Source: Candidatus Sysuiplasma jiujiangense (lineage in GTDB: Archaea > Thermoplasmatota > Thermoplasmata > Sysuiplasmatales > Sysuiplasmataceae). From it: DNA of 64,000 bases. The position numbers and the translations under genes were made by a program. The stretch spans positions 124,001-188,000 of the forward strand of contig JAHEAD010000001.1 in NCBI GenBank assembly GCA_019721075.1. Reading direction: 5' to 3'. The notes under the pieces were generated by a model. It searched no databases, was not told the origin of the DNA, and was given only the letters and a program-made list of their open reading frames with translations. Positions 15,338 through 47,602 of this stretch are shown here, in pieces. Numbering within the stretch: the first letter of the stretch is position 1; each line of letters starts with the position of its first letter.

Positions 15338-15355
15338 TTTTAATCAGACAACATA

Positions 15356-15375: not shown

Positions 15376-15392
15376 GACATACACTGAAGAGC

Positions 15393-15893: not shown

Positions 15894-15897
15894 TTGT

Positions 15898-16986: not shown

Positions 16987-17058
16987 ACGATCACTGATTG
17001 CCGTTCTTCTATAGATTATTGTCCGTTAAAGCGCATCCTGATGGCGATTTTTTCTTCT

Positions 17059-17800: not shown

Positions 17801-17871
17801 AAGACCTACCGGTCCCCAACGGTAGTAAGTATATGCTGCACGATGCTATTTCAATCCATGGTGATACAAAA

Positions 17872-30986: not shown

Positions 30987-32144
30987 TCAGATGTTAATGA
31001 CATCGCCCTTCCTCAGCACTTCAGCAACTTCCGGTCTGAGAATTTCAGACGGAAGCGGTTTCCCCTCTGAAAGTAGTTTTCTTATCCTTGTTTGACTCGT
31101 GTTCTCGTGAAATTCATCTCCATGAGGGCATACTTTTCTTGAAGCCATTCCATTGCAGACTTTGCAGTAGAATGTTTCCTCATACTTGAGCGGCACAATA
31201 CCAACGTCGAAATTGTCGAATATTCTATGCCCGGCGTAAGGGTCATAATAGCTGCCCACACCGGCCTGATCCCTGCCTACAATATAATGGGAACACCCAA
31301 AATTTCTTCTCACGATAGCATAGAAAAGAACCGCTTTTGGTCCTGCATACCGCATTGATATCGAAAGTGAAGCGAGCAGCACCCTGTCGCTCCGATAATA
31401 GTGAGAGACGAATACTTCATATGCCTCCATTATGACTTCTGGCCTGTAATCACCCTTCTTGAGCTTTCCTATTACCGGCTGTATGAAAAGTGCATCTATA
31501 TCATCCCTTTCAAGTGTTGCCCTCTGAATATATTCATGAGCGGTATGCGGCGGGTTCCTTGCCTGGTAACCAGCCACATTCCTCCAGCCATTCTTCTGAA
31601 AGAGCTCCCGGGTCTCAAGCGGCGTGTATTCAAATTTAGTATGCCGAGTCATTCTGATAAGCTGAACTTTTCCTGAGATGGCGATTTCACCCATCTGTGA
31701 CAGATCAGAAACGTTCGGATGAGCTTTGTCGGTCGTTCCATATATCTTCTTTGCAATCTCCTCCCGCGATATTGTGAATTTCTCCCCAACCCTGATAATA
31801 GCAAATGGAATTCCGGACGTATCCAGGATGGACAGCATATCCGATTCGCCCGCTTCTTTCAGGACAGCTTCATTGTCCTTTCCTGCGGGCGCCAGAAATA
31901 TGGGCATTGTCCAGGGCATTCCGTTCGAAAGCATGCTTCTGTCCAAGACGTTTTTGAAATCTTCCCTCCCCATAAAGCCTTCCAGGGGACTATAGGCTCC
32001 TGTACATATTTTTTCAGCATCATATATCTGGTCTATCAACGGTTTTATCGCCGGGATCTCGGATGCTTCCTCTCTCCGCCTAAGTAATTCGTTTTCGCCG
32101 GGAATGCCGTTGACAAGTTTTCCACCATAAGGGGACGGTATCAT
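30987..32144 (-). CDS. sat: Sulfate adenylyltransferase (ATP sulfurylase)
   Basis: PYGGKLV, GAYSPLEGFM, WTMPI, QARNPPHTAHEY, MRYAGP, RRNFGCSHYIVGRDQAGVG.YY, RPEVAEVL. Confidence 0.95.
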   Translation of the reverse strand: MIPSPYGGKLVNGIPGENELLRRREEASEIPAIKPLIDQIYDAEKICTGAYSPLEGFMGREDFKNVLDRSMLSNGMPWTMPIFLAPAGKDNEAVLKEAGESDMLSILDTSGIPFAIIRVGEKFTISREEIAKKIYGTTDKAHPNVSDLSQMGEIAISGKVQLIRMTRHTKFEYTPLETRELFQKNGWRNVAGYQARNPPHTAHEYIQRATLERDDIDALFIQPVIGKLKKGDYRPEVIMEAYEVFVSHYYRSDRVLLASLSISMRYAGPKAVLFYAIVRRNFGCSHYIVGRDQAGVGSYYDPYAGHRIFDNFDVGIVPLKYEETFYCKVCNGMASRKVCPHGDEFHENTSQTRIRKLLSEGKPLPSEILRPEVAEVLRKGDVINI

Positions 32145-32158
32145 TCAGCATCATCCCG

Positions 32159-34015
32159 TCAGGGCACAATGTGATGCACCGGTTTTGCAGACATCTCCCA
32201 CTGACGTGTCAATGGGTCATAGTGTGAATCAACGAAGACATGCCAGTTCTCATCGTCCACGTGCGGATAGTCTGCCCGGTAGTAATAGCCCGGCCATCTC
32301 GTTTCCTTTCTGTGAAGTGTGTGTCTTATCACCGCCTCAGCAACCCAGATTCTGTGGCTCAGCTCCCACGTTCTCTGCAGCTGGTGAAGATCCTCCGCTC
32401 CAATGCTCTTCATGTCCTCCTTAAGCATGAGAAGCAGGTTTAATCCCTTGTTAAGGAGTTTCTCATTTGTCGAGTAGTATGATCCAACACCCCCGCAGTA
32501 TTCGTCCATTATCTTCTCGAGTCGTTGAAGACCCTGCTTGGGTGTGATGAAGAAGGGGGAAACGCTTCCCTTCACAATTACATGCTTCCCCACTTCATAA
32601 TTTTCCAGTGGCTTGTACAACTCCTCCCTCAAAGCTTCTATCTGAGATAAATCGATTTGCGGCTTGTAATCAGCATGATCTCTCAGAAACCTTACTGCGG
32701 CCTTCGCTGCAAGACGACCTTCGGTGAAAGAGCCAGATGAGAACTTGTGGGCGCTGCCGCCGACAGTATCACCTGCTCCGAAGAGGCCCTCAACGGTCGT
32801 CATCCTGTTGTATCCCCAGTTATAATCCGATGGAGCCATGTCCTCCGGCCCGCTCACCCAGGCGCCTGCACAGACAGCATGCGATCCCATTACATACGGT
32901 TCAGACATGGTGAGTTCTGACGGATCCACCTTCGGGTCTATATTCTGAGAAGCCCACATTACAGCCTGGCCTATTGTCATGTCCAGAAAATCCTCCCAGC
33001 CAAGCTCTTCCTTTTCGCGCGTGTCGAGAGAGCGTTCAGTGTGTATGTAGATTGGACCCTTTCCTGCCTTTATCTCTTCAAGCATCAGGTGATTCCTCAG
33101 GCACGTCGGCATTGGTTTTGCATCTGCATACTTGGTTCCAACATATGTCCTCAGATTATCGATGTGCGCCTTCTCATACTCCTCACCATATGCATTTGTC
33201 GCGACTGATTTGAGCATGAGAAACCATGCCCCGACCGGACCATAACCGTCCTTGAAACGTGTGACCACAATTCTGTTTTCCATCTGTATCATGTCGGCCC
33301 CGACCTGCATCAGTAGGGCATATGCAGATCCATTGTTCCAGGGTGGATACCAAGTTCTTCCCGCTCCCTCTCCCACAGATCGCGGTCTGTATATGTGTGA
33401 GGCGCCTGCAGCACAGACTATGACAGCTTTCGCCCTGAATACGTAGAATGTGCCTTCCCTGACATCCAGACCCACCGCGCCGGCTATACGCCTGGGATTC
33501 CGCATATCTGTAAGCAGATGTGTGATCATTACCCTGTTGTACACTTCATCTACCGATTTTTGAGCTGCTTCTGCAATTATTGGCTTATATGATTCGCCAT
33601 GAATCATGATTTGCCACCTTCCTTCCCTCTGGTAGTGACCATTCTCCCTGTTGTACATCATGGGAAGGCCCCACTCCTCAAACATATGGACAGTAGCATC
33701 GACGTGCCTCGCTATATCGTACAGCAGATCCTCCCTCACGAGTCCCATCAGATCGCCTCTTGCATACCTGACAAAATCTTCAGGCATGTTTTCATTCCAT
33801 CTCATTCCCATATAGCAGTTAATAGCCGATAATCCGTGTGCCACTGCTCCACTTCTCTCAATATTTGCCTTTTCGACGATAACAATGCGAAGATCCCTAC
33901 CCCAGTATCCGGCCTCGTAGGCTGCCCCGCATCCTGCAAATCCTCCTCCCACTATCAATACGTCACAGTCAACGCGCTTTACAGATTTTGTCTTTCCAAT
34001 TGACAGAGATATCAT
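32159..34015 (-). CDS. aprA: Adenylylsulfate (APS) reductase alpha subunit
   Basis: GGGFAGCGAAYEA, ERSGAVA.GLSAINCY, WQIMIHGESYKP, RFKDGYGPVGAWF, PTCLRNH, GYNRMTTV.GLF, HKFSSGS. Confidence 0.97.
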   Translation of the reverse strand: MISLSIGKTKSVKRVDCDVLIVGGGFAGCGAAYEAGYWGRDLRIVIVEKANIERSGAVAHGLSAINCYMGMRWNENMPEDFVRYARGDLMGLVREDLLYDIARHVDATVHMFEEWGLPMMYNRENGHYQREGRWQIMIHGESYKPIIAEAAQKSVDEVYNRVMITHLLTDMRNPRRIAGAVGLDVREGTFYVFRAKAVIVCAAGASHIYRPRSVGEGAGRTWYPPWNNGSAYALLMQVGADMIQMENRIVVTRFKDGYGPVGAWFLMLKSVATNAYGEEYEKAHIDNLRTYVGTKYADAKPMPTCLRNHLMLEEIKAGKGPIYIHTERSLDTREKEELGWEDFLDMTIGQAVMWASQNIDPKVDPSELTMSEPYVMGSHAVCAGAWVSGPEDMAPSDYNWGYNRMTTVEGLFGAGDTVGGSAHKFSSGSFTEGRLAAKAAVRFLRDHADYKPQIDLSQIEALREELYKPLENYEVGKHVIVKGSVSPFFITPKQGLQRLEKIMDEYCGGVGSYYSTNEKLLNKGLNLLLMLKEDMKSIGAEDLHQLQRTWELSHRIWVAEAVIRHTLHRKETRWPGYYYRADYPHVDDENWHVFVDSHYDPLTRQWEMSAKPVHHIVP

Positions 34016-34024
34016 CTCCCGTTT

Positions 34025-34492
34025 TCAGTTCTTACTTTTACTGCCGTCGTTCACAAATGCATGAAGTTTCGGAAGGCTTTCCACTTTTAGATAATCAGGC
34101 TCATGCGAGAGCAGCGGCGTGTGAATAGAATCTTTCTCGGGAGCAGGGTAGCTCCTTGCAGATTTGATTGATCCCCACTTAGTGGTACGGATAGGAAAAG
34201 TGAATTCCTTTATGCGGCCGTCCCTGTATTTGATCTTCCATGATACCGCTCCCTTTTCAGGTTCGCGAAGTACGGTGACACCGTGCCCGAGCGGGGCAAA
34301 GTCCGCGTATCCCCTGACATCGATGGCATGTTCCGGGCAGTATTTCACACAGGTATAGCATTCCCAACACATGTCGGGTTCCACATTGAAAGCGCGCCTG
34401 TTGATTGGGTCGATGTGCATTATGTCGCTAGGACAGAGCTCGACGCATTTACCGCATCCGTCACACATCGTCATGTAAACAAATGTTGGCAT
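34025..34492 (-). CDS. aprB: APS reductase beta subunit
   Basis: MPTFVYMT.CDGCGKCVELCPSDIMHID...CWECYTCVKYCP..AIDVRGYADFAP, F.FPIRTT.WGSI. Confidence 0.96.
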   Translation of the reverse strand: MPTFVYMTMCDGCGKCVELCPSDIMHIDPINRRAFNVEPDMCWECYTCVKYCPEHAIDVRGYADFAPLGHGVTVLREPEKGAVSWKIKYRDGRIKEFTFPIRTTKWGSIKSARSYPAPEKDSIHTPLLSHEPDYLKVESLPKLHAFVNDGSKSKN

Positions 34493-34508
34493 TCTGATTC
34501 ACGACTCC

Positions 34509-35294
34509 TCAATCTTCTTTTATGAAACTCACTTTAGAAGGCGATGGCAAATGAGAATATCCATCGGCAGAATCAATTTCCCTGTGTATTGCATAAACCG
34601 GTTTGTAGATGATATGAAGGAACTTTGACCATCCCATTGAGAGGAAGGGAAAAGCAGTGACAGGCAGATAAAATATAAGCGCTATTTCTGTCGCCACAAG
34701 CGAACCGCTAAGATCGGCAAATTCCAGTATGAATTGGAAAACCACGGCAAGCATGATTGAAAAAAGGAACATGTCAGCACGAATAGAGCGGAAAATGGAG
34801 TCCTTCTCTGATCTGACATTCACGCGCATAAAAAGCATCAGAATTCCGCCAAGGAGCAGCATAGTGTTACCTGTGTTTGTAGCAATTTCAAGCGGATTCG
34901 AGATTGGAGACGCATTGAGTGTCGGGTAAACGAACGCCTTGGAAAGCATCGATAGAGCCGATACAATGAATCCCCAGAACAGAAGCAGATGAGCGATACG
35001 TCTCGGTATGTCAACTCCTTTTTCATTGCATGAAGCAATTTCACCGGAAAAGGCGATATTTCTGAGAAGGACCCGCATTATTACCGAGGAGTGGGATACA
35101 TGCTTACCTCCAGAAACCCTTCCAAAACTCCTTTTCCAGGCCCTCTCCTGTTCATATGCCCTGATTTTTTTCCGCACGAGGGCGTCATACATAACACCGA
35201 GGATGGCTCCTAAAACCAGAATCAGTACAAACAACCGAAAGTAGTCCGATGGGAAAAACACATCTATGTTTACAGCGGCCATTCTATGAACCAT
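34509..35294 (-). CDS. aprM: AprM-like membrane anchor of APS reductase
   Basis: About five TM helices, GE...C...RRIAHLL.FWGF, R.NVRSE, WSKFLH..YKP. Directly upstream of aprBA. Confidence 0.82.
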   Translation of the reverse strand: MVHRMAAVNIDVFFPSDYFRLFVLILVLGAILGVMYDALVRKKIRAYEQERAWKRSFGRVSGGKHVSHSSVIMRVLLRNIAFSGEIASCNEKGVDIPRRIAHLLLFWGFIVSALSMLSKAFVYPTLNASPISNPLEIATNTGNTMLLLGGILMLFMRVNVRSEKDSIFRSIRADMFLFSIMLAVVFQFILEFADLSGSLVATEIALIFYLPVTAFPFLSMGWSKFLHIIYKPVYAIHREIDSADGYSHLPSPSKVSFIKED

Positions 35295-35347
35295 TCAGGG
35301 CAATGAATTTTCTTTACTTATACTTATTCGATAACGACTGATTTCGA

Positions 35348-35360
35348 CTGACATTGTCAG
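35348..35360. promoter_or_regulatory. Palindromic motif CTGACATTGTCAG (candidate operator, site 1)
   Basis: Perfect 6-1-6 palindrome between aprM and the Lrp gene. Confidence 0.6.
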
Positions 35361-35524
35361 GCACATATATTTTCGTTGCTGACCGGGTAAATAATGAACC
35401 GCTTCCGTATTGAAAACACTGCATCGGGAAGCGGCTTTACTGAAAGAATATTTATGAATCTGCGGGAAGGGAGAAAGATTAATACGCATGTAAACGTAAA
35501 GCGAGAATTGAAGGTCTGCCCGGA

Positions 35525-36031
35525 ATGAACAGCAGGAAAAAAGACGAGAAAGATGCGAACGGTGGCCTAGGACTTGATTTGCTGGATGTCGGAATTATCA
35601 AGGAATTGCAGAAGAATTCCCGAACATCCTACAGGCAGATTGCCAGAAATTTCGGCGTCAGTGTGACGACAGTGAGCGAAAGAGTAAACAGGATGGTTAA
35701 GGAGGGCCTGATAAGAAGCTTTACCGTCATTGTTAACCCTGAGAAATCTGGACCAATTTTCTGCGCAGCACTTTACATCAAAGCAAGTAACGGATGTGAC
35801 CCGAGAGAGGTTGGCAGGAATGTTTCAAAGATAAAGGGGATTTGTTACACTTATCAGGCGCTCGGATTGTACGACATAATAGCTCTTGGCAGCGCCATCA
35901 GCAAGAAGGATTTTTCCACAATGATTAGGGATGTCACATCAGTTGATGGAATAAAAGAAGTCATACCGTCGATGGTCATAGACACAATAAAGGAAGAGCC
36001 CCGTCACCCGATAAGCATACCCGGAAAATAG
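35525..36031 (+). CDS. Lrp/AsnC family transcriptional regulator
   Basis: LDLLDVGIIKELQKNSRTSYRQIA...GVSVTTVSERVNRM..EGLI, GLYDII. Confidence 0.9.
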   Translation: MNSRKKDEKDANGGLGLDLLDVGIIKELQKNSRTSYRQIARNFGVSVTTVSERVNRMVKEGLIRSFTVIVNPEKSGPIFCAALYIKASNGCDPREVGRNVSKIKGICYTYQALGLYDIIALGSAISKKDFSTMIRDVTSVDGIKEVIPSMVIDTIKEEPRHPISIPGK

Positions 36032-36060
36032 TAGCGACGTTGAATTCTTGCATGTACTTT

Positions 36061-36558
36061 TCAGAATGTCGTGTTCTTTGAAGCTCTCGCAATTATCCTT
36101 TTTGACATTTCGGCCATCTCTTCACACATGCGTCTGTACGCCTGATCGTCTACCGTTGTCATCTCACCCATGTCACTGCCGATCAACGCATACTCGGAAA
36201 AGGTGTAAATGGTCGAGTCCGGATAAAGGAACAAAAGGAAACCTTTTACTGCCATGCTCGTTGCAAGAAGCAACTCGAATTGCCGCACGATGCTGTCTGA
36301 AAGTTTTCGGCTCCTGAACTCATGAATTTCTTCCTTGTTGAAGGCTCTATCCGCAAGAAAAGAGGAAGCCCGCAAGCTCATGGGTTGTCCCTCGACTGCG
36401 GAGAGACCTGCTGATGACACGATCATATCCCTTTCACCTGCTTCCTTCTTAAGCAAATATTCCATGATCGGGCTCGCATCAGCATTTGCACTGCCTACAA
36501 CCAGAATTCGTTTAACAGGTTTGCCAAAAACAAGCCTTCTGATTATGTTTTCAGACAA
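36061..36558 (-). CDS. LMW protein-tyrosine-phosphatase/ArsC-fold protein lacking the catalytic CX5R motif
   Basis: RILVVGSANADASPIMEYLL, VSSAG, FRSRKLS, FELLLA. The P-loop Cys and Arg are absent. Confidence 0.75.
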   Translation of the reverse strand: MSENIIRRLVFGKPVKRILVVGSANADASPIMEYLLKKEAGERDMIVSSAGLSAVEGQPMSLRASSFLADRAFNKEEIHEFRSRKLSDSIVRQFELLLATSMAVKGFLLFLYPDSTIYTFSEYALIGSDMGEMTTVDDQAYRRMCEEMAEMSKRIIARASKNTTF

Positions 36559-36560
36559 GT

Positions 36561-36845
36561 TTATTCCTTGACTGGTATTTCGAAATCGATTCTTTCAATT
36601 ATGTCTTCCTTTCGGATTGGCAAAATGTTCCTATAGGCAGGAAACATGTCTGAGCTGAAGCGTTCCGCTATAGCACCGTTATCTTCCTTGGCCGCCTGTT
36701 CACCTATGAGTAGAACATCATCATCTTCCCTGACGACTACTCCACCTGCCCTGAAAACAGCACGGTAAACCGTTGCATCCGCTCCTCTTCCGCCATGAGG
36801 AGAAAAAGGTTTAGGATCCGAATACTTCACGTAAACGATTTTCAC
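36561..36845 (-). CDS. Hypothetical protein
   Basis: 94-aa ORF packed between dsrE and the PTP-like gene (2-bp gap downstream). Confidence 0.65.
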   Translation of the reverse strand: MKIVYVKYSDPKPFSPHGGRGADATVYRAVFRAGGVVVREDDDVLLIGEQAAKEDNGAIAERFSSDMFPAYRNILPIRKEDIIERIDFEIPVKE

Positions 36846-36875
36846 CGGAAATGCACCGAGATCAATACCTGCATT

Positions 36876-37316
36876 TCAGATGAAGAGAGTTATTGCAGAA
36901 GGATCGGAAGCCCATTGAAGAAATGTGGCCGCTCCGACAACGTCTGCACCAGGCAGTGTGAGATTCTCCTTCGTTGTTCCAAAAAGCTTCATGGTTGGCG
37001 AACATGCATTTATGTGAACACCTGATTCGGCCGCCATCTGAAGCATCTGTTGCACGGATGGCATTCCGCCTTTCGATATCAGTCCCTTCAGCTGTTCAGC
37101 ATTTAGTCCGAGGTCCTTTGAAGGTTCAAGTGCATCCGCCTGACCCTTGGTCAGAAGTTTCATTCCTCCAAAGGTGAAGTACATGTATACTTCCATTCCC
37201 TGGGCCGCCGCAGTCGTGGCCAGTATCAAGGCCGGATATGCGGCATCCATGGTGCCTTTGCTCACAACTAGTACTAGCTTGTTCTTTGATTCAGATTTCT
37301 CTACCGCGTTTTGCAT
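36876..37316 (-). CDS. dsrE: DsrE-family sulfurtransferase (DsrE2/peroxiredoxin-like)
   Basis: SKGTMDAAYPALILATTAAA.G.EV.MYFTFGG, GVHINACSPTM, VVGAATFL..A. Confidence 0.85.
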   Translation of the reverse strand: MQNAVEKSESKNKLVLVVSKGTMDAAYPALILATTAAAQGMEVYMYFTFGGMKLLTKGQADALEPSKDLGLNAEQLKGLISKGGMPSVQQMLQMAAESGVHINACSPTMKLFGTTKENLTLPGADVVGAATFLQWASDPSAITLFI

Positions 37317-37375
37317 TTACTGTTGTCCCCGATACCTTATTCCTTACACGTTATAAGTAAATTACCAGCCACTTA

Positions 37376-37388
37376 CAGACATTGTCAA
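37376..37388. promoter_or_regulatory. CAGACATTGTCAA (candidate operator, site 2)
   Basis: Near-identical copy of site 1 in the divergent dsrE/tusA gap. Confidence 0.55.
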
Positions 37389-37449
37389 GAAGATCCGCTA
37401 AATTAGGGGTAGAACTAAATATATATCAATACGACATGATTACACCATT

Positions 37450-37683
37450 ATGTCATCTGAAGCGAAAGTTTTTGATTTCAGGGGACTGCAGTGCCCCCTC
37501 CCCGTGTTTGAGACAAGCAAGGCTATCAAACAGATAAATGTCGGAGAAACGATTCTTGTTATGGCAAACGACCCGGCCGCAAAACCTGATCTGCAGGCAT
37601 GGTCGAAGAGAACGGGACATGAGATCGTGAATCTTGAGGAAAAAGAGGATTTTGTGAGCTTTACAATTAAGAGATCGCACTGA
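37450..37683 (+). CDS. tusA: TusA sulfur carrier
   Basis: DFRGLQCPLP, GE...VMANDPAA..DL.AW...TGHE. Confidence 0.93.
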   Translation: MSSEAKVFDFRGLQCPLPVFETSKAIKQINVGETILVMANDPAAKPDLQAWSKRTGHEIVNLEEKEDFVSFTIKRSH

Positions 37684-37874
37684 CATTTGAACAGTTTCTC
37701 TATCAGAAAACAAACTGGATGGATCTGAATGGAGGGGGAGAGGTATCGATATCTAGTACATTTACCCCTCCTCGTTGTGTAATGACAGACATTTTTTGCA
37801 TCGGCTCAGTTCGTTGTACTATTGTCCTACCAAAAGTATAATTAATAAAGTGTCCATTAGAATGTCTTAAATGA

Positions 37875-37887
37875 TTAACATTGTCAG
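37875..37887. promoter_or_regulatory. TTAACATTGTCAG (candidate operator, site 3)
   Basis: Third copy, just upstream of a TTTTAAA box and hdrC1. Confidence 0.5.
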
Positions 37888-37924
37888 GCTGATGATTTTA
37901 AACGAACATAAAGGAGAATGACTG

Positions 37925-38704
37925 ATGTCAATCCTCAAAAATTTGCCAAAGAGAGAGGATTCGCAATCGCCATCTATGATTATTTCAGGAGCAAGGGGAC
38001 ATGGCAAACAGTCTGATGAAACAGCCAAAAGGATTTTCGCTGAAATGCGCAGTGATTTTAGATACAAAGATTTTGTTTTAGGCTGCCTTAACTGCGGTGA
38101 ATGCACTACAGGCTGTCCGGCAGCCAGATTTTACGATTTCAGCCCAAGAGAAATGCTTCAGGTGGCGATGTCTGAAGATCCCGACGTTCTGCTTGACGCC
38201 ATGCAGGAAAAAATATGGGCCTGCTGCCAGTGTTATACATGCAACATGAGATGCAGATTCGGAAATGATATAGCGGGAATAATAAGCGTAATGAGAGAAC
38301 TTGCAGTGAAAAATGGCCTTGAAAGCGCAAAGGAAGTCCTGAAACCCGCAAGCAGGAGTCTCCTCAAAGTTATGACACATGGAACCCAAGTGTCGCCGGA
38401 CATGATACAACCAGATTTCTTTATTGACTGGGATCCAAAGGCTGTATCGAAATCTGGTGATCTTCAACTGCTCCGAAAAGCGATACCGATAGATGTTCTT
38501 CAGGTAACTGACTCGTCGTGGGAGGTTTCCATGCAAACTGCACTCGAGCTTGCCCAGATTTATGAAGAGTCTGGAGTGCTCGATATGCTCAGGTCCCTTG
38601 ATCCCGACCTTGTGGAAATGATTGTTGATATAATTTCAGACTGGAAAGATGAATTCGAAGATATGAAAGAAAAATTCGGCATGAAGAGCGATGATGGAAA
38701 ATGA
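37925..38704 (+). CDS. hdrC1: Sulfur-oxidizing heterodisulfide reductase-like subunit C1
   Basis: CLNCGECTTGCP, FYDFSPRE, IWACCQCYTCNMRC; cluster order. Confidence 0.9.
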   Translation: MSILKNLPKREDSQSPSMIISGARGHGKQSDETAKRIFAEMRSDFRYKDFVLGCLNCGECTTGCPAARFYDFSPREMLQVAMSEDPDVLLDAMQEKIWACCQCYTCNMRCRFGNDIAGIISVMRELAVKNGLESAKEVLKPASRSLLKVMTHGTQVSPDMIQPDFFIDWDPKAVSKSGDLQLLRKAIPIDVLQVTDSSWEVSMQTALELAQIYEESGVLDMLRSLDPDLVEMIVDIISDWKDEFEDMKEKFGMKSDDGK

Positions 38705-39990: not shown

Positions 39991-39998
39991 GTGATATT

Positions 39999-41081
39999 CT
40001 GACCGCAGCACGCATACTTGTCATAGGAGGAGGACCAGCGGGACTGAGTGCGTCGATGGATCTTTTCGGTGCGGGAGCTGAGGTGGTTCTGGTGGAAAAG
40101 GAATCTTTTCTTGGCGGGACCCCAAAGCGCCTTCACTACAGCCTGATAGCACCGGATCTCAAACCTGTGGAGGAAGTACTCGACCCTTTGATAAAAGAGG
40201 TAAAGTCCTCAGGGATAAGGACGAAACTCGGCACAATTGTTTCATCCATCAGGAATCATGATAAGAGTGTACAGGCAACATTCAAATCAATCTCTGACGG
40301 AAAGGAGGAAAAAGACGCTTTTGACGCGGTCGTGCTGGCCACCGGATTCTCGCACTGGGATCCGCATAAGAAGTACGAATACGGCTACGGCCTCTATCCA
40401 GATGTCATTGACTTCAAGGATTTTGAACAGATGCTTTCGGAGGACCGCCTCATCAGACCATCCAATGGTCAGATGCCTAAACGGATAGGGTGGCTTCTCT
40501 GCGTAGGTTCGCGGGACAGGCAGGTTGGAAAATTCTACTGCTGCAGGCTTGGCTGCGCAGTATCGATAAAACAGGCAATGGAGGTGAAGAAGAAGCATCC
40601 GGAAATTGACACTTACATCTATTACATGGACATTAGGACATATGGCTTTTGGGAAGACCAGCTGTACTGGAAATCCATGGAGGAAATGAATGTCAAATAC
40701 ATACGCGGACGTATAGGGGCCATCAGCAAGGGAGAAGACGGCAGTCTTATTGCAATGGCCGAAGATACAATTCTACAGAGACCCAGTGAAGTTCCGTTCG
40801 ACATGCTTGTGCTTGCCACAGGAATGGAGGCAAGCGAGGGAACTGTCGAAATGGCCAAAATGCTTGGACTGGAAATGGAAGAGCATGGCTTTGTTAGGCC
40901 GCTTCAGGCAGACAGCCTTCCCGTGCATACTACAGTTGAAAACGTGTTTGTAGCCGGCACAGCTACGGGCCCAAAAGCGATACCCGATGCCATAACAGAG
41001 GGCTCGGCAGCCGCGATAAAGGTACTCAATTACGTGAGGAAGAGGTCGATAAAAACAAATGCCAGAGCTTATGCTGAATAG
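39999..41081 (+). CDS. hdrA: sHdr subunit A (FAD-binding); probable CTG start
   Basis: In-frame upstream ILVIGGGPAGLSAS, LGGTP, ATGF.H, YGYG, CVGSRDRQ.G...CC..GC.VSIKQA, YMDIRTYG.WE, GPKAIPDAI.EG. Confidence 0.92.
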   Translation: MTAARILVIGGGPAGLSASMDLFGAGAEVVLVEKESFLGGTPKRLHYSLIAPDLKPVEEVLDPLIKEVKSSGIRTKLGTIVSSIRNHDKSVQATFKSISDGKEEKDAFDAVVLATGFSHWDPHKKYEYGYGLYPDVIDFKDFEQMLSEDRLIRPSNGQMPKRIGWLLCVGSRDRQVGKFYCCRLGCAVSIKQAMEVKKKHPEIDTYIYYMDIRTYGFWEDQLYWKSMEEMNVKYIRGRIGAISKGEDGSLIAMAEDTILQRPSEVPFDMLVLATGMEASEGTVEMAKMLGLEMEEHGFVRPLQADSLPVHTTVENVFVAGTATGPKAIPDAITEGSAAAIKVLNYVRKRSIKTNARAYAE

Positions 41082-41769
41082 TTACCGCATGCGTGAAATT
41101 GCGGATGCGACAATAGGACATGAATGGGAGGCGGAGCTCAGAGCTTACGTTGAACTTCTCAGGCGTAAATCCGAAATTGTCACTTCAATGACACGGGAAA
41201 GAGACAGGAGTGAAGAATTCAGGAAAGACTTCATAAGAATGTGTTTCACATCGAGGAGGTATGCTGACTCCATTCTCTCACACAACACGCCTGGTGGGAT
41301 TGATATGGCCATTGAGTCCCTCGCGTCGGCAGACGATGAACCGGAGGCATGCATTGCCATATTTGCCGGCCTGCATGGTGCACCTGCTGAAGTGATAAGA
41401 GATCTTGCCTTTGAAATGATTCACTTTTCATTTCCGGAAAAATACGGACTGGCGACAAGATGGGTCTGGAATCCTGCACGAGGCACTGGTGCTCTTAGGG
41501 AGGCAATAATGGCCGATAGGATGGAAATGAATTTCACCCAGATACAGAAAGTAATGAGAAACATATACTCGTCTCTCATTGTTCATGGATACAGATTTCA
41601 TGATTTTTTTCCACTTGACCTCATAAGCGCTCTCCATTATTCACAGGATGTCATAGGAGCAAAGGACAACTCAATGAACGCTGGTGGAATGGAGGCTCTT
41701 TTCCCGAACCATGGAGTGATTTCGATAATGATACTCGGACTGAAGGAGATACGTTATGCCAATCCATGA
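41059..41769 (+). CDS. Conserved sHdr-cluster protein (Hyp/sHdrH)
   Basis: Position between hdrA and hdrC2; E.IHF..PEKY.L.TRWVWNP..GTGAL. Confidence 0.82.
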   Translation: MPELMLNSYRMREIADATIGHEWEAELRAYVELLRRKSEIVTSMTRERDRSEEFRKDFIRMCFTSRRYADSILSHNTPGGIDMAIESLASADDEPEACIAIFAGLHGAPAEVIRDLAFEMIHFSFPEKYGLATRWVWNPARGTGALREAIMADRMEMNFTQIQKVMRNIYSSLIVHGYRFHDFFPLDLISALHYSQDVIGAKDNSMNAGGMEALFPNHGVISIMILGLKEIRYANP

Positions 41770-42463
41770 GAAGCACTTGATTGCAAAAGAAAAAATACTG
41801 CAGAAGGACAGGGCAGAACTTGAAGGGAGGGATGTTTCAGGACAGTGGAACATTTTCATACAGCAGAGAATCCTGTCACAATATGAGCCGTCCATTGCAG
41901 AGGATATTGCATCGACGCATGAAGGGAGAACCATCAACAGATGCTGGCAATGCGGTACTTGCACATCCGGTTGCTGTATGCATACTGATTTCGGCCTTCG
42001 GGAGTTCAATCCCCGATACTTCATTTATCTTGCAAGGATTGGGGATGAGGAAGAACTGAAGAAACAGAAGGATGTTATCTGGCGCTGCCTATCATGCAAC
42101 AAGTGCGTTGAAAGATGCCCGAAGGATGTGAGGGTTGAAGAGGTCATACATGCCATTGACGGGTACATGAGGAAGAAGGGATGGATGACTGATACTCCCG
42201 CAAGCAGGTGGGACAGGGAGTATGTCAACAATGTCCTGGAGACTGGAATACTTGATGAAATAATGCTCCTCAGGAACTATATCAAGAAGGAGGAACTGAA
42301 GGAATTTGACTCCGGCTACATGATGAGGATGGGGATGCGCCTTGCCAGAACTGGTAGACTGAGAACCGGTCCCGTCAGGCACAGGACAAAAGGCTGGAAG
42401 AAGATCAAAAAAGTCGCTGAAGAAATACTGGAAAAGGATGGATATGAACTACCAAAAAGGTGA
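41756..42463 (+). CDS. hdrC2: sHdr subunit C2
   Basis: MPIHEK, DVSG.WN, RCWQCGTCTSGC, FNPRY, IWRCLSCNKCVERCPKDV. Confidence 0.92.
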   Translation: MPIHEKHLIAKEKILQKDRAELEGRDVSGQWNIFIQQRILSQYEPSIAEDIASTHEGRTINRCWQCGTCTSGCCMHTDFGLREFNPRYFIYLARIGDEEELKKQKDVIWRCLSCNKCVERCPKDVRVEEVIHAIDGYMRKKGWMTDTPASRWDREYVNNVLETGILDEIMLLRNYIKKEELKEFDSGYMMRMGMRLARTGRLRTGPVRHRTKGWKKIKKVAEEILEKDGYELPKR

Positions 42464-43355
42464 TATTGCTTTTTACCCTGGCTGTTCGCTAGACGGACTC
42501 GGAAAAGCTTACAGGAAGAGCTCGGAGCTTGTAACAAAGGATCTGGGCATTCAGATGGAAGAGATTGTGAACTATAACTGCTGTGGAGCGGCGGAAGTCA
42601 AGACCGTGAGCTACGATCTGTCCGTTTTTCTCCCCGGAAGAAATCTCGCACTTGCAAAAGAAATGGGTTCAAAGACAGTCGTTGCGCCTTGCAATGGATG
42701 TGTCTTTTCTCTGGGAAGAGCAAATAAAGCGATAGCTGAAGACACCGCGACCAAAGAAAGGGTTAACGAATATCTTGAAAGGGCCGGTGCACCATCATAT
42801 AATGGTGAAGTGGAGGTAAAGCACATAATAGAAGTCATATACCAGCAGGCCGGACTCGATACAATCCGCAACATGGTCAGGAGACCACTGAAAGGCATAA
42901 AAGTTGCCTGTTACTACGGTTGCCTGTACACCAGGCCAAAGATTTACACAGGAGCTGGTTCCTGGGATAAAGACAACCCGGAACACCCCCACTTCATGGA
43001 CGACATCATGGAAGCAATAGGGGCAGAAGTGGTCGACTACCCTCTGAAAACGGTATGCTGCGGTGGCGGCCATGCAATAGCCGATCGTGAGGTATCTGTT
43101 GGCTTCAGCGCTTCAATACTTAATGAAGCGGCAAGAGCAGGGGCTGATTTTGTAGTAACAATGTGTCCTCTGGGGCAGATGAATATCGAGGCAAACATAC
43201 CAATGATTGTAAAGCAATATGGTCAGCAGATAGTGAGGCCGGTCGTTTATTTCACTCAGCTAATGGCGCTTGCATTCGGCCACAGCCGGAGAGATGTGCG
43301 ACTTGGAGACAATTTTTCCGATGGTGGAAAGATTTTACGCCAGAAGGGATTCTAG
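42438..43355 (+). CDS. hdrB2: sHdr subunit B2
   Basis: AFYPGCSL, YNCCGA, RNLA, APCNGC, YYGCLYTRP, CCGG.H, MCPLG; CCG domains. Confidence 0.92.
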   Translation: MDMNYQKGDIAFYPGCSLDGLGKAYRKSSELVTKDLGIQMEEIVNYNCCGAAEVKTVSYDLSVFLPGRNLALAKEMGSKTVVAPCNGCVFSLGRANKAIAEDTATKERVNEYLERAGAPSYNGEVEVKHIIEVIYQQAGLDTIRNMVRRPLKGIKVACYYGCLYTRPKIYTGAGSWDKDNPEHPHFMDDIMEAIGAEVVDYPLKTVCCGGGHAIADREVSVGFSASILNEAARAGADFVVTMCPLGQMNIEANIPMIVKQYGQQIVRPVVYFTQLMALAFGHSRRDVRLGDNFSDGGKILRQKGF

Positions 43356-43370
43356 TCAAGGGAGGTAGGA

Positions 43371-43823
43371 ATGATGACGTTCATAAATGGATGTGAACTG
43401 CCCGACAACCTGCTCTACTTTGTGGAAGGAAACCAGATGTCGTGGATAAGACTGGAAGAAGATGAGGCTGTCATAGGACTGACGGATCCCGCCCAGACAA
43501 GGGCCGGAAAGATAGTTGTTATCAGGGTGAAGGGGGAGGGCACAAGCAGACCAAAGGGAAAGCCACTGGCAACAATTGAAAGCGGAAAGTGGGCAGGTGC
43601 TGTTCTGTCACCGTTAACAGGCGTAGTCGTGAAACCCAATGAGGAACTCACCGCCCATCCTGAACTGATTAACAACGATCCTTACGGTAAAGGATGGATT
43701 GTCAGGGTGAAAATGATCAATCGGGAGGAAAGCAGTTCTCTCCTCCGGGGTGAACAGGCCATGGAAAAATACAGAGAACTGATAGGCAGGGACAACATAC
43801 GCTGCATCAGATGCCAGCAGTGA
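43371..43823 (+). CDS. lbpA: Lipoate-binding protein (GcvH-like)
   Basis: N-terminal GCELP..L.Y, lipoyl motif IESGKWAG, N.DPYG.GWI, C-terminal RCIRC. Follows hdrB2. Confidence 0.88.
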   Translation: MMTFINGCELPDNLLYFVEGNQMSWIRLEEDEAVIGLTDPAQTRAGKIVVIRVKGEGTSRPKGKPLATIESGKWAGAVLSPLTGVVVKPNEELTAHPELINNDPYGKGWIVRVKMINREESSSLLRGEQAMEKYRELIGRDNIRCIRCQQ

Positions 43824-43824
43824 G

Positions 43825-44211
43825 GTGGCAAATATGGTTGAAGTTGAAGGAAAGAAGTTGCTTATTGTGATGACAACAGGCCCGGAAGATCCTGAGAAGA
43901 CATATGCCCCATTCTATACAGCAGCACTCTCTGCTGCGATGGAGGTGGATACATCAATGTACTTCCTCATGCACGCGCCAAAGCTTCTGAAAAATGGCTC
44001 CGCGGAACAGGTCAGACTGAAGAAAGGCGGAACACTGAAGCAGTTCATTAACATGGCGCTGGAGGGAGGAGTGAAATTCTATGCCTGCGAGGAAAGCTTG
44101 CGCGATCTTTGCGACATAGATCCGAAGGATGTAATAGAAGGGGTTAAAGTTGTCGGCTCCTCCACACTGGCTGATCTTGCACTTGACTCAGATTCGGTTC
44201 TAAGTTTTTGA
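43825..44211 (+). CDS. dsrE: DsrE-family protein
   Basis: TTGPEDPEK.YAPF..A, GVKFYACEESL, VVG. Confidence 0.85.
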   Translation: MANMVEVEGKKLLIVMTTGPEDPEKTYAPFYTAALSAAMEVDTSMYFLMHAPKLLKNGSAEQVRLKKGGTLKQFINMALEGGVKFYACEESLRDLCDIDPKDVIEGVKVVGSSTLADLALDSDSVLSF

Positions 44212-44212
44212 G

Positions 44213-45340
44213 GTGAAGATGACGGACCTTGAGATAATAAATCTCGGTCCCGTAGACGGTTATGTAATGACAAACGTGTTTGTTGCTCTTTCGTACGCAG
44301 TCAGCGAGGAAAGGCGCAATGATGTGCTTGTCTTATGCCACCCTGAAAAGCCATTTGCGAACGTAGGGTTCCATCAGGAGACGCTCAGGGAGATTGACAT
44401 TGACTATTGCACAAGACATTCCATACCCGTTGTCAGAAGGGTTATCGGAGGGGGGGCGATAGCAGACGGACCATGGGAGGAAGATTACTTCCTAATAAGC
44501 AGGATCGGTTCTAAGTCGACACGGGGAACGTTAAAGGAATATTACGGCAGGATGCTTGAACCAGTTTCATCCGCATTGCACAGACTGGGGCTGAACGCAA
44601 CCAGACAGGGGCTGAACGACCTTGCAGTGGATGGCAGAAAGATTAGCGCAAACGGGGCTGTGGACATAGAAGGGGCAAGGGTTCTTACAGGCGATATTCT
44701 TCTAGACCTGAACATCGACATCATGGCAGGCATACTGAAGGTCCCGGAAGAAAAATTCAGGGATAAAATAGCAAAAACGATGATGGAGCATCTAACGGGA
44801 ATCAGACAGACTCTTGGACGGGAAATCGAACGGGGAGAAATTGACAAACTGCTTGCAGAGGAGTTTGGAAGACTCTACGACGGCGTGAAAAGTTCTGATA
44901 TAACAGAACATGAGAAAAAGCGTCTTGACCTGTTGGTAGAGGAAAGGAAAAGACAGGAGTGGATTTTCTCTCGGGACAGTGATAGGAGCGAGCTATTTGC
45001 AGATCGCAGGATAGTCAAGATCAATGAGGGTACTTTTCTTTGCAAGGCAGACTACAAAGCACAGAAGCTGATACGAGTTACAATGCTTGTTGAGTCAGGG
45101 AGGATTAAAAATATAGCCATTTCGGGGGACTTTTTTACCGTGCCCGTAAGCTGGAAGCTGGAAAGACTTGAAAGACGCCTTGAGGGAACTCCTCTGAATC
45201 ATGAAGATATCAAATCCATTGTTGACACTTTGATTTCTCAGGATGGCGTAACAGTGCTCGGCGCGGAGCCAGAAGATTTCGCATCTGCAATAATGGATGC
45301 CGCCAGGCATCCGGAAATTTCGAATGAAAACAGAGGCTGA
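44213..45340 (+). CDS. lplA: Lipoate--protein ligase, catalytic and C-terminal domains fused
   Basis: VGFHQ...EID...C, VVRRVIGGGA, ND..V.GRKIS.NG, KVPEEKFRDK, C-terminal ISGDFF. Confidence 0.85.
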   Translation: MKMTDLEIINLGPVDGYVMTNVFVALSYAVSEERRNDVLVLCHPEKPFANVGFHQETLREIDIDYCTRHSIPVVRRVIGGGAIADGPWEEDYFLISRIGSKSTRGTLKEYYGRMLEPVSSALHRLGLNATRQGLNDLAVDGRKISANGAVDIEGARVLTGDILLDLNIDIMAGILKVPEEKFRDKIAKTMMEHLTGIRQTLGREIERGEIDKLLAEEFGRLYDGVKSSDITEHEKKRLDLLVEERKRQEWIFSRDSDRSELFADRRIVKINEGTFLCKADYKAQKLIRVTMLVESGRIKNIAISGDFFTVPVSWKLERLERRLEGTPLNHEDIKSIVDTLISQDGVTVLGAEPEDFASAIMDAARHPEISNENRG

Positions 45341-46427
45341 AAGTTTGAAAAGCGAACTGAGGGAAATTCTGTCGACAGTTCCGCATCCTGAAAGGCGTTC
45401 CTCCCTGATAGAGCTGGGTATGATATCTTCGATTAATGCAGAAGGAAAAAGAGTCAGGGTCGTTGCCTCCATACCTGAAGGATACCAACTGGCAGACATC
45501 ATAAAATCAGACATAGAAACGGTGTTGAAGGATGCTGGATACGACTGCGCAGTTGAATTCACAATCAAAGGGAAGACCGTGCCGGATGAAAGGAAGTCAA
45601 GGAAACTTCCCATAATTGTCACAGGAACCAGAGAAAGAACAGGCATAGACGCACTTCCACGGAACGACATAGGAAATATCATCGCCGTGGCATCCGGCAA
45701 GGGAGGAGTGGGAAAGAGCTTTATTACGACCGCGATAGCGACGCATCTTACCTCACTGGGATACAGGACAGGCATACTGGACGCAGACATCACTGGTCCG
45801 TGTATTTCTCGAATGCTTGGACTGAGGGACCTTCCTGAACTCGGGGAAAATAACAGAATGAAGCCGCTGGTGTCAAGAATGGGCATCAGGGTGATGTCCA
45901 TTGACCTGATAATGGACAAATTCAAAACACCACTGGTGTGGAGAGGACCTCTGATAAACAGCGCGATCAGAGGGTTGTTTTCGGAAACTGAATGGGGTGA
46001 TTTACACTACCTGCTGGTAGATCTGCCTCCCGGCACATCAGATGCACCGCTGACTGTATTCCAGTCGTTGACTCCGGATGGCGTGCTTTTCGTCACCAGT
46101 CCGATGGAAGTTGCGAGATCCGTAGTTGCCCGTTCAATAGCCATGGCGAGTGAGATGCATGTACCTGTTATAGGAGTGGTTGAGAATATGGCATTTCTCA
46201 GGCTTCCAGACGGTTCGCGCATAAATGTATTTGGAAGAGAGGAAGGCAAAAAAGTTGCTGAGGAGTTTGGTGTTCCATACATTGGATCTGTTCAGCTCGA
46301 TCCTGCCGTTAGCGCGCTGTCAGATCGTGGGGAGATTGAACTTTACAGCAACAGTCAATTCTTCAGGATAATCAGGAATTTGAGATTCAGCCTTCTGCGC
46401 ATTTCACCGGACACAAGAAGGGGATGA
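45324..46427 (+). CDS. Mrp/ApbC/NBP35-family ATPase with N-terminal DUF59-like domain
   Basis: HPE..SSLIELGMI, VASGKGGVGKS, LDADITGP, VWRGP, WG.L.YL.VDLPPGTSD, GVVENM. Confidence 0.88.
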   Translation: MKTEAESLKSELREILSTVPHPERRSSLIELGMISSINAEGKRVRVVASIPEGYQLADIIKSDIETVLKDAGYDCAVEFTIKGKTVPDERKSRKLPIIVTGTRERTGIDALPRNDIGNIIAVASGKGGVGKSFITTAIATHLTSLGYRTGILDADITGPCISRMLGLRDLPELGENNRMKPLVSRMGIRVMSIDLIMDKFKTPLVWRGPLINSAIRGLFSETEWGDLHYLLVDLPPGTSDAPLTVFQSLTPDGVLFVTSPMEVARSVVARSIAMASEMHVPVIGVVENMAFLRLPDGSRINVFGREEGKKVAEEFGVPYIGSVQLDPAVSALSDRGEIELYSNSQFFRIIRNLRFSLLRISPDTRRG

Positions 46428-46430
46428 CTA

Positions 46431-46634
46431 ATGCCCAGAATACGCGTTATATCCAGAATCGGGAATCCATTCTTTTCCGGGGTAACAGGAAAGACCGCAA
46501 AGACTGTGCCGCCGGAACATCTTGAGATTCTAAACAGTCTCTTCTTTGAAGGTGAAGTGGATAAAGGAGGCACTGTGGAAATCGACGGGCGGAGATATGT
46601 GTGCACCTCGTACGGATGGGCATGTGAGGAATAA
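46431..46634 (+). CDS. Hypothetical 67-aa protein with two C-terminal cysteines
   Basis: Tightly packed (3-bp and 1-bp gaps); ends YVCTSYGWACEE. Confidence 0.65.
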   Translation: MPRIRVISRIGNPFFSGVTGKTAKTVPPEHLEILNSLFFEGEVDKGGTVEIDGRRYVCTSYGWACEE

Positions 46635-46635
46635 T

Positions 46636-46986
46636 ATGGAGTCACAGTTCCTTATAATTCTTTTTTCATCTCCAGTGCAGCACAGGGAAGCTGAATCGGC
46701 AAGGGACAGGGCACAGTCACTCATGGCGGCAGGCAAAAAGGTGTCAATATTCCTTCTGGGAGATGGTGTTTACAATGCTTCTGAAGAGCTAATTCAGCCT
46801 GGCAATCCGGGTGTTGTTTCATCTTTTGCTCAGATGGAAGAGGCAGACATTGTTTGCTGTTCGACATGTTTGGCTATGAGGGGAGTGAACAGGCTCATTG
46901 GAACGGCGAGGAAAGGGAGCCTGGAAGATCTTGTGGATAAAATGGAAAAGGCGGATATCATACTGAATTACACGGCGGAGGAATGA
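46636..46986 (+). CDS. DsrE/TusD-like protein
   Basis: SSP, G.KVSIFLLGDGVY, CCSTCLAMRG, GSLEDL. Start re-called at ATG 46636. Confidence 0.8.
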   Translation: MESQFLIILFSSPVQHREAESARDRAQSLMAAGKKVSIFLLGDGVYNASEELIQPGNPGVVSSFAQMEEADIVCCSTCLAMRGVNRLIGTARKGSLEDLVDKMEKADIILNYTAEE

Positions 46987-47318
46987 TGAGAGTTACTGTT
47001 TTGCTGACACGACCTCCCCTATCCACCGCACACGTGACGGAGGCATTGCGCGTCTCCTTAATGCTCGCTGCTCTAGGGCACGACGTATCTCTGGTTCTAA
47101 TTGACGATGGAGTATTCATGCTTCTGGAAAATATGGGAGCCTCATTCGGGCTCGAAACACTGAAAAGGGCGGATGGTGCTGACGGCCTTCATCTGTGTGT
47201 TCACGGTGATTCCGTCAGAAAATTACTGCCTGATATGAAAATACCAGCAACTTACAGCATGCTTGAGACCAGAGACATTGCATCAATGATTCTCTCAGAG
47301 AAAGTGCTGGTGTTCTGA
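46983..47318 (+). CDS. DsrF/TusC-like protein
   Basis: LTRPP.......EALR, VSLVLIDDGVF, V..DS, ends KVLVF. Confidence 0.75.
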   Translation: MMRVTVLLTRPPLSTAHVTEALRVSLMLAALGHDVSLVLIDDGVFMLLENMGASFGLETLKRADGADGLHLCVHGDSVRKLLPDMKIPATYSMLETRDIASMILSEKVLVF

Positions 47319-47602
47319 TGCAGGTGCTAATCCACATGCACAGAAGAATTCAAATGAAATCCGGAATTATAGAGGTGGTATCCGAAATCTGCAGGAGAAC
47401 GGAAACAACAATTGTCCTCGGGGGCGCTGCAGTATTTTCCGCCGGTAATTTGCAGCATACGCTCAATTCCTGTCGGGCACAGTATAGATTGTGTGTGGAG
47501 AATGTGGCCGAAAGCCATCCGCTCCCAGCTGATGTTGAGCGTTTGAGCACTGATGAAGTGACAAAGCTTATTGCTGTGACAGAGCGGGTAATACTGTTCT
47601 GA
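47318..47602 (+). CDS. DsrH/TusB-like protein (divergent)
   Basis: Size and position after E and F; IVLGGAAVF, ends EVTKLIA.TERVILF. Confidence 0.55.
   Translation: MQVLIHMHRRIQMKSGIIEVVSEICRRTETTIVLGGAAVFSAGNLQHTLNSCRAQYRLCVENVAESHPLPADVERLSTDEVTKLIAVTERVILF

Follow-up and report, generated by a model that had tools for sequence, protein, structure and literature searches.

A gene block in Candidatus Sysuiplasma jiujiangense that joins sHdr-LbpA to AprM-anchored APS reductase and ATP sulfurylase, and its predicted role in oxidising sulfane sulfur to sulfate

Can an archaeon of the Thermoplasmata oxidise protein-bound sulfur all the way to sulfate with the products of a single locus? The question arises from a 64-kb stretch of the genome of Candidatus Sysuiplasma jiujiangense (contig JAHEAD010000001.1; C1:124001-188000 of the 2.29-Mb, 97% complete host genome, here G000), which we call the window and whose positions are used below. 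About 17 kb of it (30987-47602) encode an sHdr complex with the lipoate-binding protein LbpA, sulfur carriers, an Lrp-type regulator, and adenosine 5'-phosphosulfate (APS) reductase with its membrane anchor AprM and ATP sulfurylase (Sat). Both halves belong to systems of established chemistry: sulfane sulfur is turned into sulfite by sHdr-LbpA, and sulfite into sulfate by AprMBA-Sat of lineage I (PMC10504309, PMC2211403 and the Tanabe et al. preprint, each in its accessible part). Analysis of the locus and its relatives suggests, with a probability that we put at about 0.68, that the block is a single regulated pathway oxidising protein-bound sulfane sulfur to sulfate and supplying supplementary energy to an oxygen-respiring heterotrophic archaeon.

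Gene calls from a list of open reading frames (ORFs), combined with Pfam and NCBIfam profile scans against curated cut-offs, place every gene named in the initial annotation within the block with an intact frame. Genome classification bears out the suspected Thermoplasmatota host and assigns it to the Thermoplasmata, genus Ca. Sysuiplasma; the closest AprA match is that of Ca. Sysuiplasma superficiale (87% identity), and the genome G001 belongs to the same genus. Gaps within the operons range from -44 to +16 bases, GC content is 0.45-0.50 in block and flanks alike, and the gene order is shared exactly by G001 and G002 and almost exactly by G004. A chimeric or mis-binned bacterial contig was ruled out on the evenness of GC content and on the recurrence of this gene order in other genomes.

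The sHdr half is encoded on the forward strand by shdrC1 (37925..38704, with two [4Fe-4S] motifs), shdrB1 (38701..39990), shdrA (39999..41081), a gene for a 236-aa hypothetical protein (41059..41769) that matches no family and is assigned as sHdrH by its position and by homologues at the same place in relatives, shdrC2 (41756..42463, from a family scan) and shdrB2 (42438..43355; TIGR03288, 184 bits, two CCG domains). The short (360-aa) FAD- and Fe-S-binding sHdrA has four cysteines and finds its best match in the Protein Data Bank in 6TJR, which we take to be sHdrA of Hyphomicrobium denitrificans (264 bits over the full length, against 200 bits for a partial match to methanogen HdrA); because its FAD motif lies before the first ATG (40056), the frame must start upstream of that codon, probably at CTG 39999. 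Its partner sHdrB1 is 56-60% identical to copies from Acidianus and other Sulfolobales, Acidithiobacillus and Proteobacteria, matches methanogen HdrB only at E 2.6e-15, and belongs to a clade that a quick tree joins to the Sulfolobales copies as their sister (SH-aLRT 93). Next comes lbpA (43371..43823, forward), the GcvH-like product of which carries a lipoyl lysine in the motif ESGKW, cysteines near both termini (8 and 145/148) and an isoelectric point of 6.6, compared with 4.9 for the GcvH of the same genome. A lipoyl lysine, terminal cysteines and lower acidity than GcvH are the marks of LbpA in the accessible part of bioRxiv 10.64898/2026.10.01.755906, and the order shdrC1B1A-H-C2B2 without hdrB3, etfAB or emo is the definition of type I in that of the Tanabe et al. 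preprint. Gene order, motifs and structure matches thus confirm the sHdr with LbpA that had been recognised initially.

The sulfur carriers all lie within the cluster and keep their active cysteines: TusA (37450..37683, forward; PF01206, 76 bits; Cys15 in a CPxP motif), a 146-aa DsrE-family protein with Cys105 (36876..37316, complementary strand), the nearest solved structure of which is the DsrE2B-like 2QS7, identified as DsrE2B in the accessible part of the Tanabe et al. preprint, and a 128-aa DsrE-family protein with Cys88 and Cys96 (43825..44211, forward) nearest to the DsrE3A-like 3MC3 (121 bits). Downstream on the forward strand are a fused lipoate:protein ligase at the position of sLpl(AB) (44213..45340; PF21948 and PF10437), an Mrp/ApbC Fe-S cluster carrier identified by family scans (45297..46427) and a DsrEFH/TusDCB-like trio (46546..47602). 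The first two subunits of the trio match TusD and TusC models below cut-off, and a cysteine of the first aligns with Cys78 of 2HY5, the DsrE Cys78 position; the third, of 94 aa, matches no family among models that exclude DsrEFH type II. LipA (387 bits) is encoded elsewhere in the genome, beside a 2-oxoacid dehydrogenase cluster with E3. About 43 kb upstream of the window on C1 (locus 15273-15929), a GcvH/LbpA-like domain without the lipoyl lysine is fused to a TusA-like domain, in a gene convergent with one for a rhodanese.

The Apr-Sat half is encoded on the complementary strand by aprM (34509..35294), aprB (34025..34492; TIGR02060, 178 bits, cut-off 136), aprA (32159..34015; TIGR02061, 961 bits, cut-off 642) and sat (30987..32144; PRK04149, 424 bits, and TIGR00339, 326 bits, both above cut-off), the only sat of the genome. 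The position of aprM immediately upstream of aprBA, without qmoABC, is a trait of lineage I. The 261-aa AprM-type anchor corresponds to the membrane domain of QmoC without its Fe-S part; it has about four hydrophobic segments and two histidines, His102 and His227, that are invariant across 17 AprM/QmoC-like sequences, and is 28-33% identical to AprM encoded beside bacterial lineage I aprBA. The initial annotation had called the N-terminus of AprB oxidiser-like, and the alignment agrees in that the Cys13-Gly19 loop is missing and Trp43 is kept. The loop characterises Qmo-linked enzymes, and Trp43 is a further criterion, but the loop is also missing in crenarchaeal reducers (PMC2211403, accessible part), and loop-less AprB occurs in Thermoproteota that possess DsrAB.

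AprA is 69-73% identical to the copies of Thiobacillus, Sulfuricella and Chromatiaceae. All trees were built with LG+G4 or FastTree; for AprA, sets of 69, 38 and 41 rows were chosen by hand out of 173, with same-contig duplicates and AprA shorter than 450 aa dropped. Rooted on Qmo-type AprA, the 69-row tree places the window in a 44-row clade (support 100/98) together with bacterial lineage I, Nitrososphaeria and Marsarchaeota, and a second Thermoplasmata family (f10), outside a bacterial subclade (100/100) that also holds genus g3 of the window's own family; the 41-row tree keeps the large clade with 27 rows (99/98), its inner order unresolved. Approximately unbiased (AU) tests, run with 38 rows, rejected placing the Sysuiplasma trio either with the AprM-type AprA of Thermoproteota (p 0.014) or with Qmo-type AprA (p 0.0009). 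Monophyly of all archaeal AprM-type rows was also rejected (p 6e-12, and p 0.003 without genus g3), whereas the sHdr-linked archaea as one clade, in groups named after the tree had been seen, were not rejected (p 0.13). Strictly, then, the trees place this AprA as a probable sister to bacterial lineage I, or at its base, and not within it; the AprM-anchored lineage I enzyme of the initial annotation stands as a member of the clade that holds lineage I (99-100/98) and not of the bacterial subclade itself.

The direction in which these enzymes run was approached through the rest of the genome. No dsrA was found above E 1e-30, the weak match being a NirA-like ORF on contig C4; no full qmoC was found; and no PF00384 molybdopterin enzyme was found with a search that was positive in 11 of 14 controls. 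Therefore no sink was found for reductively made sulfite or sulfur, and no SoeA-type alternative for oxidising sulfite. A reductive Apr accompanied by dsrAB or qmo, the case that the initial annotation had set against itself, was ruled out by the AU rejection of that AprA grouping and by the dsrA and qmoC searches. Among 34 genomes picked from the tree, which include kin and so are not independent, dsrA occurs in 1 of 18 inside the AprA clade and in 14 of 16 outside it, whereas sHdr occurs in 16 of the 18 (not in G358 and G822) and in none of the 16; G003 and G009, also dsrA-negative, were left out of these tallies.

The block might instead run backwards under anoxia, with Sat and Apr reducing sulfate to sulfite and sHdr reducing sulfite to sulfane sulfur in place of DsrAB, or it might serve disproportionation. 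Apr and Sat are reversible, the order aprM-aprB-aprA-sat is the same in DsrAB-bearing archaea, one member of the family (G007) has DsrAB together with this type of Apr, and archaeal aprAB were taken as a sign of sulfate reduction in a geothermal survey (PMC11094006, accessible part). Every sHdr system tested in the sources, as far as they are accessible, nevertheless oxidises; AprA groups with the lineage I of oxidisers; searches of G000 found neither a bifurcating partner of the Qmo type nor a hydrogenase or polysulfide reductase; and the genome encodes two oxygen reductases. We therefore consider reversal improbable.

Under the oxidative reading, the steps of which are all drawn from homology, sulfide would be converted to polysulfide by an SQR encoded on contig C34, and DsrE and TusA would carry the sulfur as persulfide to sHdr, which would oxidise it to sulfite and pass the electrons to lipoylated LbpA. 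LbpA would be loaded by the adjacent ligase and probably finished by LipA, or would receive free lipoate, and its electrons would reach NAD+ through dihydrolipoamide dehydrogenase; a link of sHdr-LbpA to NAD+ through lipoamide is known. AprAB would join sulfite to AMP, with electrons flowing via AprM to quinone and on to heme-copper oxidases, and Sat would convert APS and pyrophosphate to sulfate and ATP. Consistent with the two ends of this route, the genome encodes two COX1 genes, one beside genes for a Rieske protein and cytochrome b, and a type III-like SQR (354 bits, below cut-off) in a tusA-sqr-dsrE-DUF1641 cassette (C34, 6235-8706). The same cassette adjoins the block in G005 and G006 and the shdr operon in G007, and lies inside the block in G004. 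A small PF00174 protein could be a minor sulfite oxidase. The initial annotation had proposed a complete cytoplasmic pathway from elemental sulfur; the completeness of the sHdr and Apr-Sat sets stands, but the starting point is moved to protein-bound sulfane sulfur, no gene for uptake of elemental sulfur having been identified.

Joint control of the two halves is suggested by a palindrome. Within the window TGACAWTGTCA occurs three times at up to one mismatch, each time in a gap between genes: as TGACATTGTCA (35349..35359), a candidate operator 54 bases before aprM; with one mismatch between the divergent dsrE and tusA (37377..37387); and with one mismatch 38 bases before hdrC1 (37876..37886). 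With a matrix derived exclusively from 12 sites in relatives, the three sites of the window come 2nd, 4th and 5th in the 2.29 Mb and head the intergenic matches. Sites are present in 15 of 17 equivalent gaps of six relatives (G001-G004, G1177 and G1183), where 0.14 were expected, and in 17 of 17 at two mismatches, the limits of the gaps having been set by the analyst after the sites were seen; identity is 0.88-0.95 in the core of the palindrome and 0.27-0.36 in the flanks. A site also precedes the SQR gene inside the block of G004. The Lrp/AsnC-family regulator encoded between the halves (35525..36031, forward; family scans), which is also in the block of G001, G002, G004, G1177, G1183 and G1188, is a candidate to bind the palindrome and would then switch both halves together. 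Since the palindrome recurs in three gaps of the block and in those of relatives, the apr, dsrE/tusA and shdr parts are likely to form one Lrp regulon. A sigma-70 promoter scan, with a model unsuited to archaea, gave results at chance level.

These regulatory sites also bear on whether Sat and AprAB merely assimilate sulfate, together with the NirA-family sulfite/nitrite reductase on C4, next to shdr by accident. The genome has a single sat to serve such a purpose, and an assimilatory use of Sat-AprAB is discussed for Dsr-less organisms in the accessible part of Neukirchen et al. (PMC10504309). Assimilation needs no membrane anchor, however; the apr-shdr linkage outlasts rearrangement in three archaeal classes; and the palindrome precedes aprM and hdrC1 even where they lie on separate contigs (in G436, a site with one mismatch before aprM and a weaker site before hdrC1). 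Assimilation is accordingly a very improbable explanation of the block.

Several observations weigh against a regulated oxidative pathway. On the regulatory side, besides the gap limits just mentioned, the window holds no more copies of the palindrome than chance could give (3, where 1.5 were expected), and the palindrome was not seen at equivalent places in genus g3, the blocks of which show no lrp, or in f10; nor was it seen in G1188, and both f10 and G1188 have an lrp, more distant or 53% identical. As to Apr, Meyer and Kuever found no structural mark of its direction (PMC2211403, accessible part), and DsrAB-bearing Thermoproteota share the AprM-like anchor as well as the loop-less AprB (in crenarchaeal reducers an AprM-like gene precedes or faces aprBA), so that these two features alone are no proof of direction. 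G007 combines this Apr type and sHdr with archaeal-type dsrAB, DsrK and a Qmo-like hdrA-hdrA-qmoC set. No LipS1 or LipS2 was recognised in the 10 scanned of 15 radical-SAM ORFs of the genome, where no LipS-specific model was used; no sulfur transporter or elemental-sulfur uptake gene was identified; and SOR gave no match in a search that was also blank in controls. The evidence for the pathway comes from sequence. In its favour, mine-drainage RNA run X1 yielded 13 contigs at least 99% identical to the block; among them, the eight listed span portions of aprA, dsrE, hdrB1, hdrA, hdrH and hdrB2-lbpA. Runs X2 and X3 contain almost nothing of the block. The X1 contigs could be DNA carry-over, genes without contigs are uninformative, and since the contigs come from one study without a control stretch, they speak for presence and not for a level of transcription.

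A further point of this kind is that Hdr occurs in all Sulfolobaceae, including weak sulfur oxidisers, and has been read as detoxification (Willard et al., PMC11323534, accessible part). In Ca. Sysuiplasma the same chemistry could likewise serve to clear reactive sulfur and the sulfite made by sHdr, with little or no gain in growth. Sulfite made by sHdr slows growth of Hyphomicrobium, according to a supplement legend, and the host has genes of peptide and 2-oxoacid metabolism. Also in line with detoxification is the failure to find SOR, and to find RuBisCO, SoxB or NiFe-hydrogenase by profile or by motif scans without controls, which are weak tests. Yet, as is established for lineage I, AprM connects the reaction with the quinone pool, and ATP is formed by Sat in the oxidative direction; a 17-kb block rich in Fe-S proteins, kept in most members of the family and moved across phyla, would be costly for this purpose; and the SQR cassette adjoins the block in G005 and G006 and lies within it in G004. 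We judge detoxification unlikely to be the main purpose, and energy conservation from sulfane sulfur remains the preferred reading.

How far the block extends beyond its host was examined by a synteny search across archaeal genomes. Besides relatives, a second family of the Thermoplasmata has it, and rearranged versions occur in Marsarchaeales and Nitrososphaeria. Within the family, sHdrB1 is at least 80% identical in 7 of 9 other genomes; both modules are adjacent in a different order in G005, G006 and G008, and G007 has the sHdr operon, cut by a contig edge. Among 400 further Thermoplasmatota sampled, 10 have aprA and 4 have sHdrB1; three of the latter, from family f10, have aprA and sHdrB1 on one contig, and the sHdr of the fourth is type II-like. 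Outside the phylum, sHdrB1 was found in 5 of 16 genomes of the order containing Marsarchaeota and in 4 of 151 of the class containing Nitrososphaeria; G1177 and G1183 have the whole block, rearranged, and G434, G435, G1063 and G1188 have a variant near aprMBA-sat. The block is thus real and patchy, and apparently mobile.

Individual loci show further variation. Contigs G1183:C41 and G1177:C5, in the Marsarchaeota-containing order, carry a Sysuiplasma-type block with sHdrB1 85% identical, likely the result of transfer between Thermoplasmata and Thermoproteota. In f10 (G367, G430 and G418) aprBA adjoins shdr, with no aprM detected beside it, and there are a second ligase-like gene and extra copies of LbpA and DsrE. 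G007 is a candidate switcher between sulfur oxidation and reduction, or a disproportionator, and its Qmo-like set recurs in G005. Nitrososphaeria and some Marsarchaeales (G435, G434, G821, G1063 and G1188) have another sHdr layout, in which hdrC1-B1-A is joined by a short hdrC2 and the gene for a QmoC-like membrane protein, without hdrH and hdrB2 (for example G435, 8406-12688), which in G435, G1063 and G1188 lies a few kb from aprMBA-sat; it falls outside the definitions of types I and II and may represent a third, membrane-anchored sHdr type. Several genomes of genus g3 have a TnpB/Cas12f-like ORF at the same site between hdrC1 and aprM (for example 16713-17945), so that an SQR gene there was ruled out; the AprA of this genus groups with the bacterial clade, and the ORF is possibly a scar of apr replacement. 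A 2.8-kb contig in a Nitrospirae bin, probably mis-binned, carries aprMBA nearly identical to that of G002.

Compared with characterised systems, the sHdr half resembles the type I sHdr-LbpA of Hyphomicrobium denitrificans, Acidithiobacillus and Aquifex (Tanabe et al. 2024, PMC11094781) in gene order, LbpA marks, adjacent ligase, TusA and DsrE, but lacks lipS1, lipS2 and lipT in the block, has carriers of the Sulfolobales kind (3MC3- and 2QS7-like), has Lrp instead of the ArsR-type sHdrR and is joined to aprMBA-sat. The accessible text of that paper assigns archaeal type I sHdr to Thermoproteota, and the 35 archaeal rows of its Table S1 list it in Sulfolobaceae and one UBA184 Thermoplasmata genome, with no Sysuiplasma, Marsarchaeales or Nitrososphaeria. 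The hdr-lbpA-dsrE3A-tusA cluster of Sulfolobaceae (Metallosphaera and Acidianus) shares a sister sHdrB1 and the same carrier types; its sulfite-oxidation gene is unassigned in the accessible part of PMC11323534, whereas AprMBA-Sat adjoins the cluster in the window. That 2024 paper knows of no archaea other than Sulfolobaceae that oxidise elemental sulfur, and treats what becomes of their sulfite as unknown. Like proteobacterial lineage I (PMC2211403), the window has aprM before aprBA, loop-less AprB with Trp43 and no qmo; lineage I is described as proteobacterial in that paper and in the accessible part of PMC5099947, whereas the window AprA, together with that of other archaea, branches next to the bacterial clade or immediately beneath it. 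In Thioalkalivibrio-type organisms both modules likewise share a genome, with type I sHdr (Table S1 of PMC11094781) and Apr of lineage I (PMC5099947), but these organisms are bacterial, autotrophic and compared at genome level; none of the bacterial loci among 80 examined, several of them short, has shdr core genes next to aprA. The aprM-like-aprBA-sat operons of Thermoproteales and Thermoplasmata with archaeal DsrAB share the operon order, the membrane-only QmoC-like gene and its two histidines; their AprA is nevertheless only 50-60% identical and in separate clades, and those genomes are mostly dsrA-positive, none with sHdrB1. For Lutacidiplasmatales, sulfite oxidation by a different enzyme has been proposed, with aprA and hdr unmentioned in the accessible part (PMC9287336), and archaeal aprAB in acid springs have been read as reduction (PMC11094006). 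Presence tables of PMC10332631 and PMC10504309 could include the present genomes. In keeping with the initial view that the parts are known and their combination perhaps new, we could not find the block, its concentration in one archaeal locus, its operator or its host range across phyla described in the literature searched, which did not extend to the description of the order or to subscription papers. That description, by Yuan and colleagues in 2021, is said to predict oxidation of reduced sulfur for Ca. Sysuiplasmatales.

Two genes absent from the earlier list lie between lrp and dsrE on the complementary strand, a low-molecular-weight phosphatase homologue without the catalytic cysteine motif (36061..36558; weak PF01451 match, alignment) and a conserved 94-aa beta-rich protein (36561..36845). 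The latter has 13 homologues in related loci and no Pfam, NCBIfam or atlas name; its predicted structure (pLDDT 78) has no significant fold match, the best Foldseek hit being at E 0.16 among scattered Sm/Hfq-like rows. After sat, in the same direction, follows a calcineurin-like metallophosphoesterase gene (30135..30791, complementary strand; PF12850), which also lies beside sat or aprM in G001, G002, G004, G005, G006 and G008, while G1183 has a different phosphoesterase after sat. At the other end, 43 bases past the block, is a gene for a 914-aa bacterial-type phosphoenolpyruvate carboxylase (47646-50390; 811 bits, cut-off 815), similarly placed in G001-G003. A metallo-beta-lactamase-fold protein of the glyoxalase II/persulfide-dioxygenase-like kind is encoded 2 kb off the block (27278-27892); many bacterial loci have comparable genes in the vicinity of aprA. 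Positions 1-15337, of higher GC content (0.50-0.53), hold a compact trp/aro/chorismate biosynthesis cluster, read from translations only.

Taken beyond the host, the block admits a wider reading that we offer as tentative and on present evidence doubtful: it may be a mobile, self-regulating sulfur-to-sulfate island in acid-loving archaea of three classes, which would be sulfur oxidisers outside the Sulfolobaceae, and an archaeal aprM-aprBA-sat cassette may have parted from DsrAB, become linked to sHdr and then reached Proteobacteria, giving rise to lineage I, so that oxidative use of APS reductase would have begun in this block. An archaeal origin of lineage I is supported because, with the root placed on Qmo-type AprA, the bacterial lineage I sequences fall within the archaeal AprM-type ones, and because the switch from Dsr to sHdr maps to the node below it, in an analysis of one gene with LG+G4 and an assumed root, where the sHdr-linked archaea as a single sister clade were not rejected (p 0.13). 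The block would thus supply a hypothesis for the origin of the lineage I APS reductase and a candidate regulator-operator pair for archaeal sulfur oxidation. Surveys that tally archaeal aprAB as evidence of sulfate reduction can misread them. For acidophilic archaea beyond the Sulfolobaceae, the block offers specific genes to target in a complete pathway to sulfate within the cytoplasm, and if that route is real, such archaea would produce acid in mine drainage and in hot springs.

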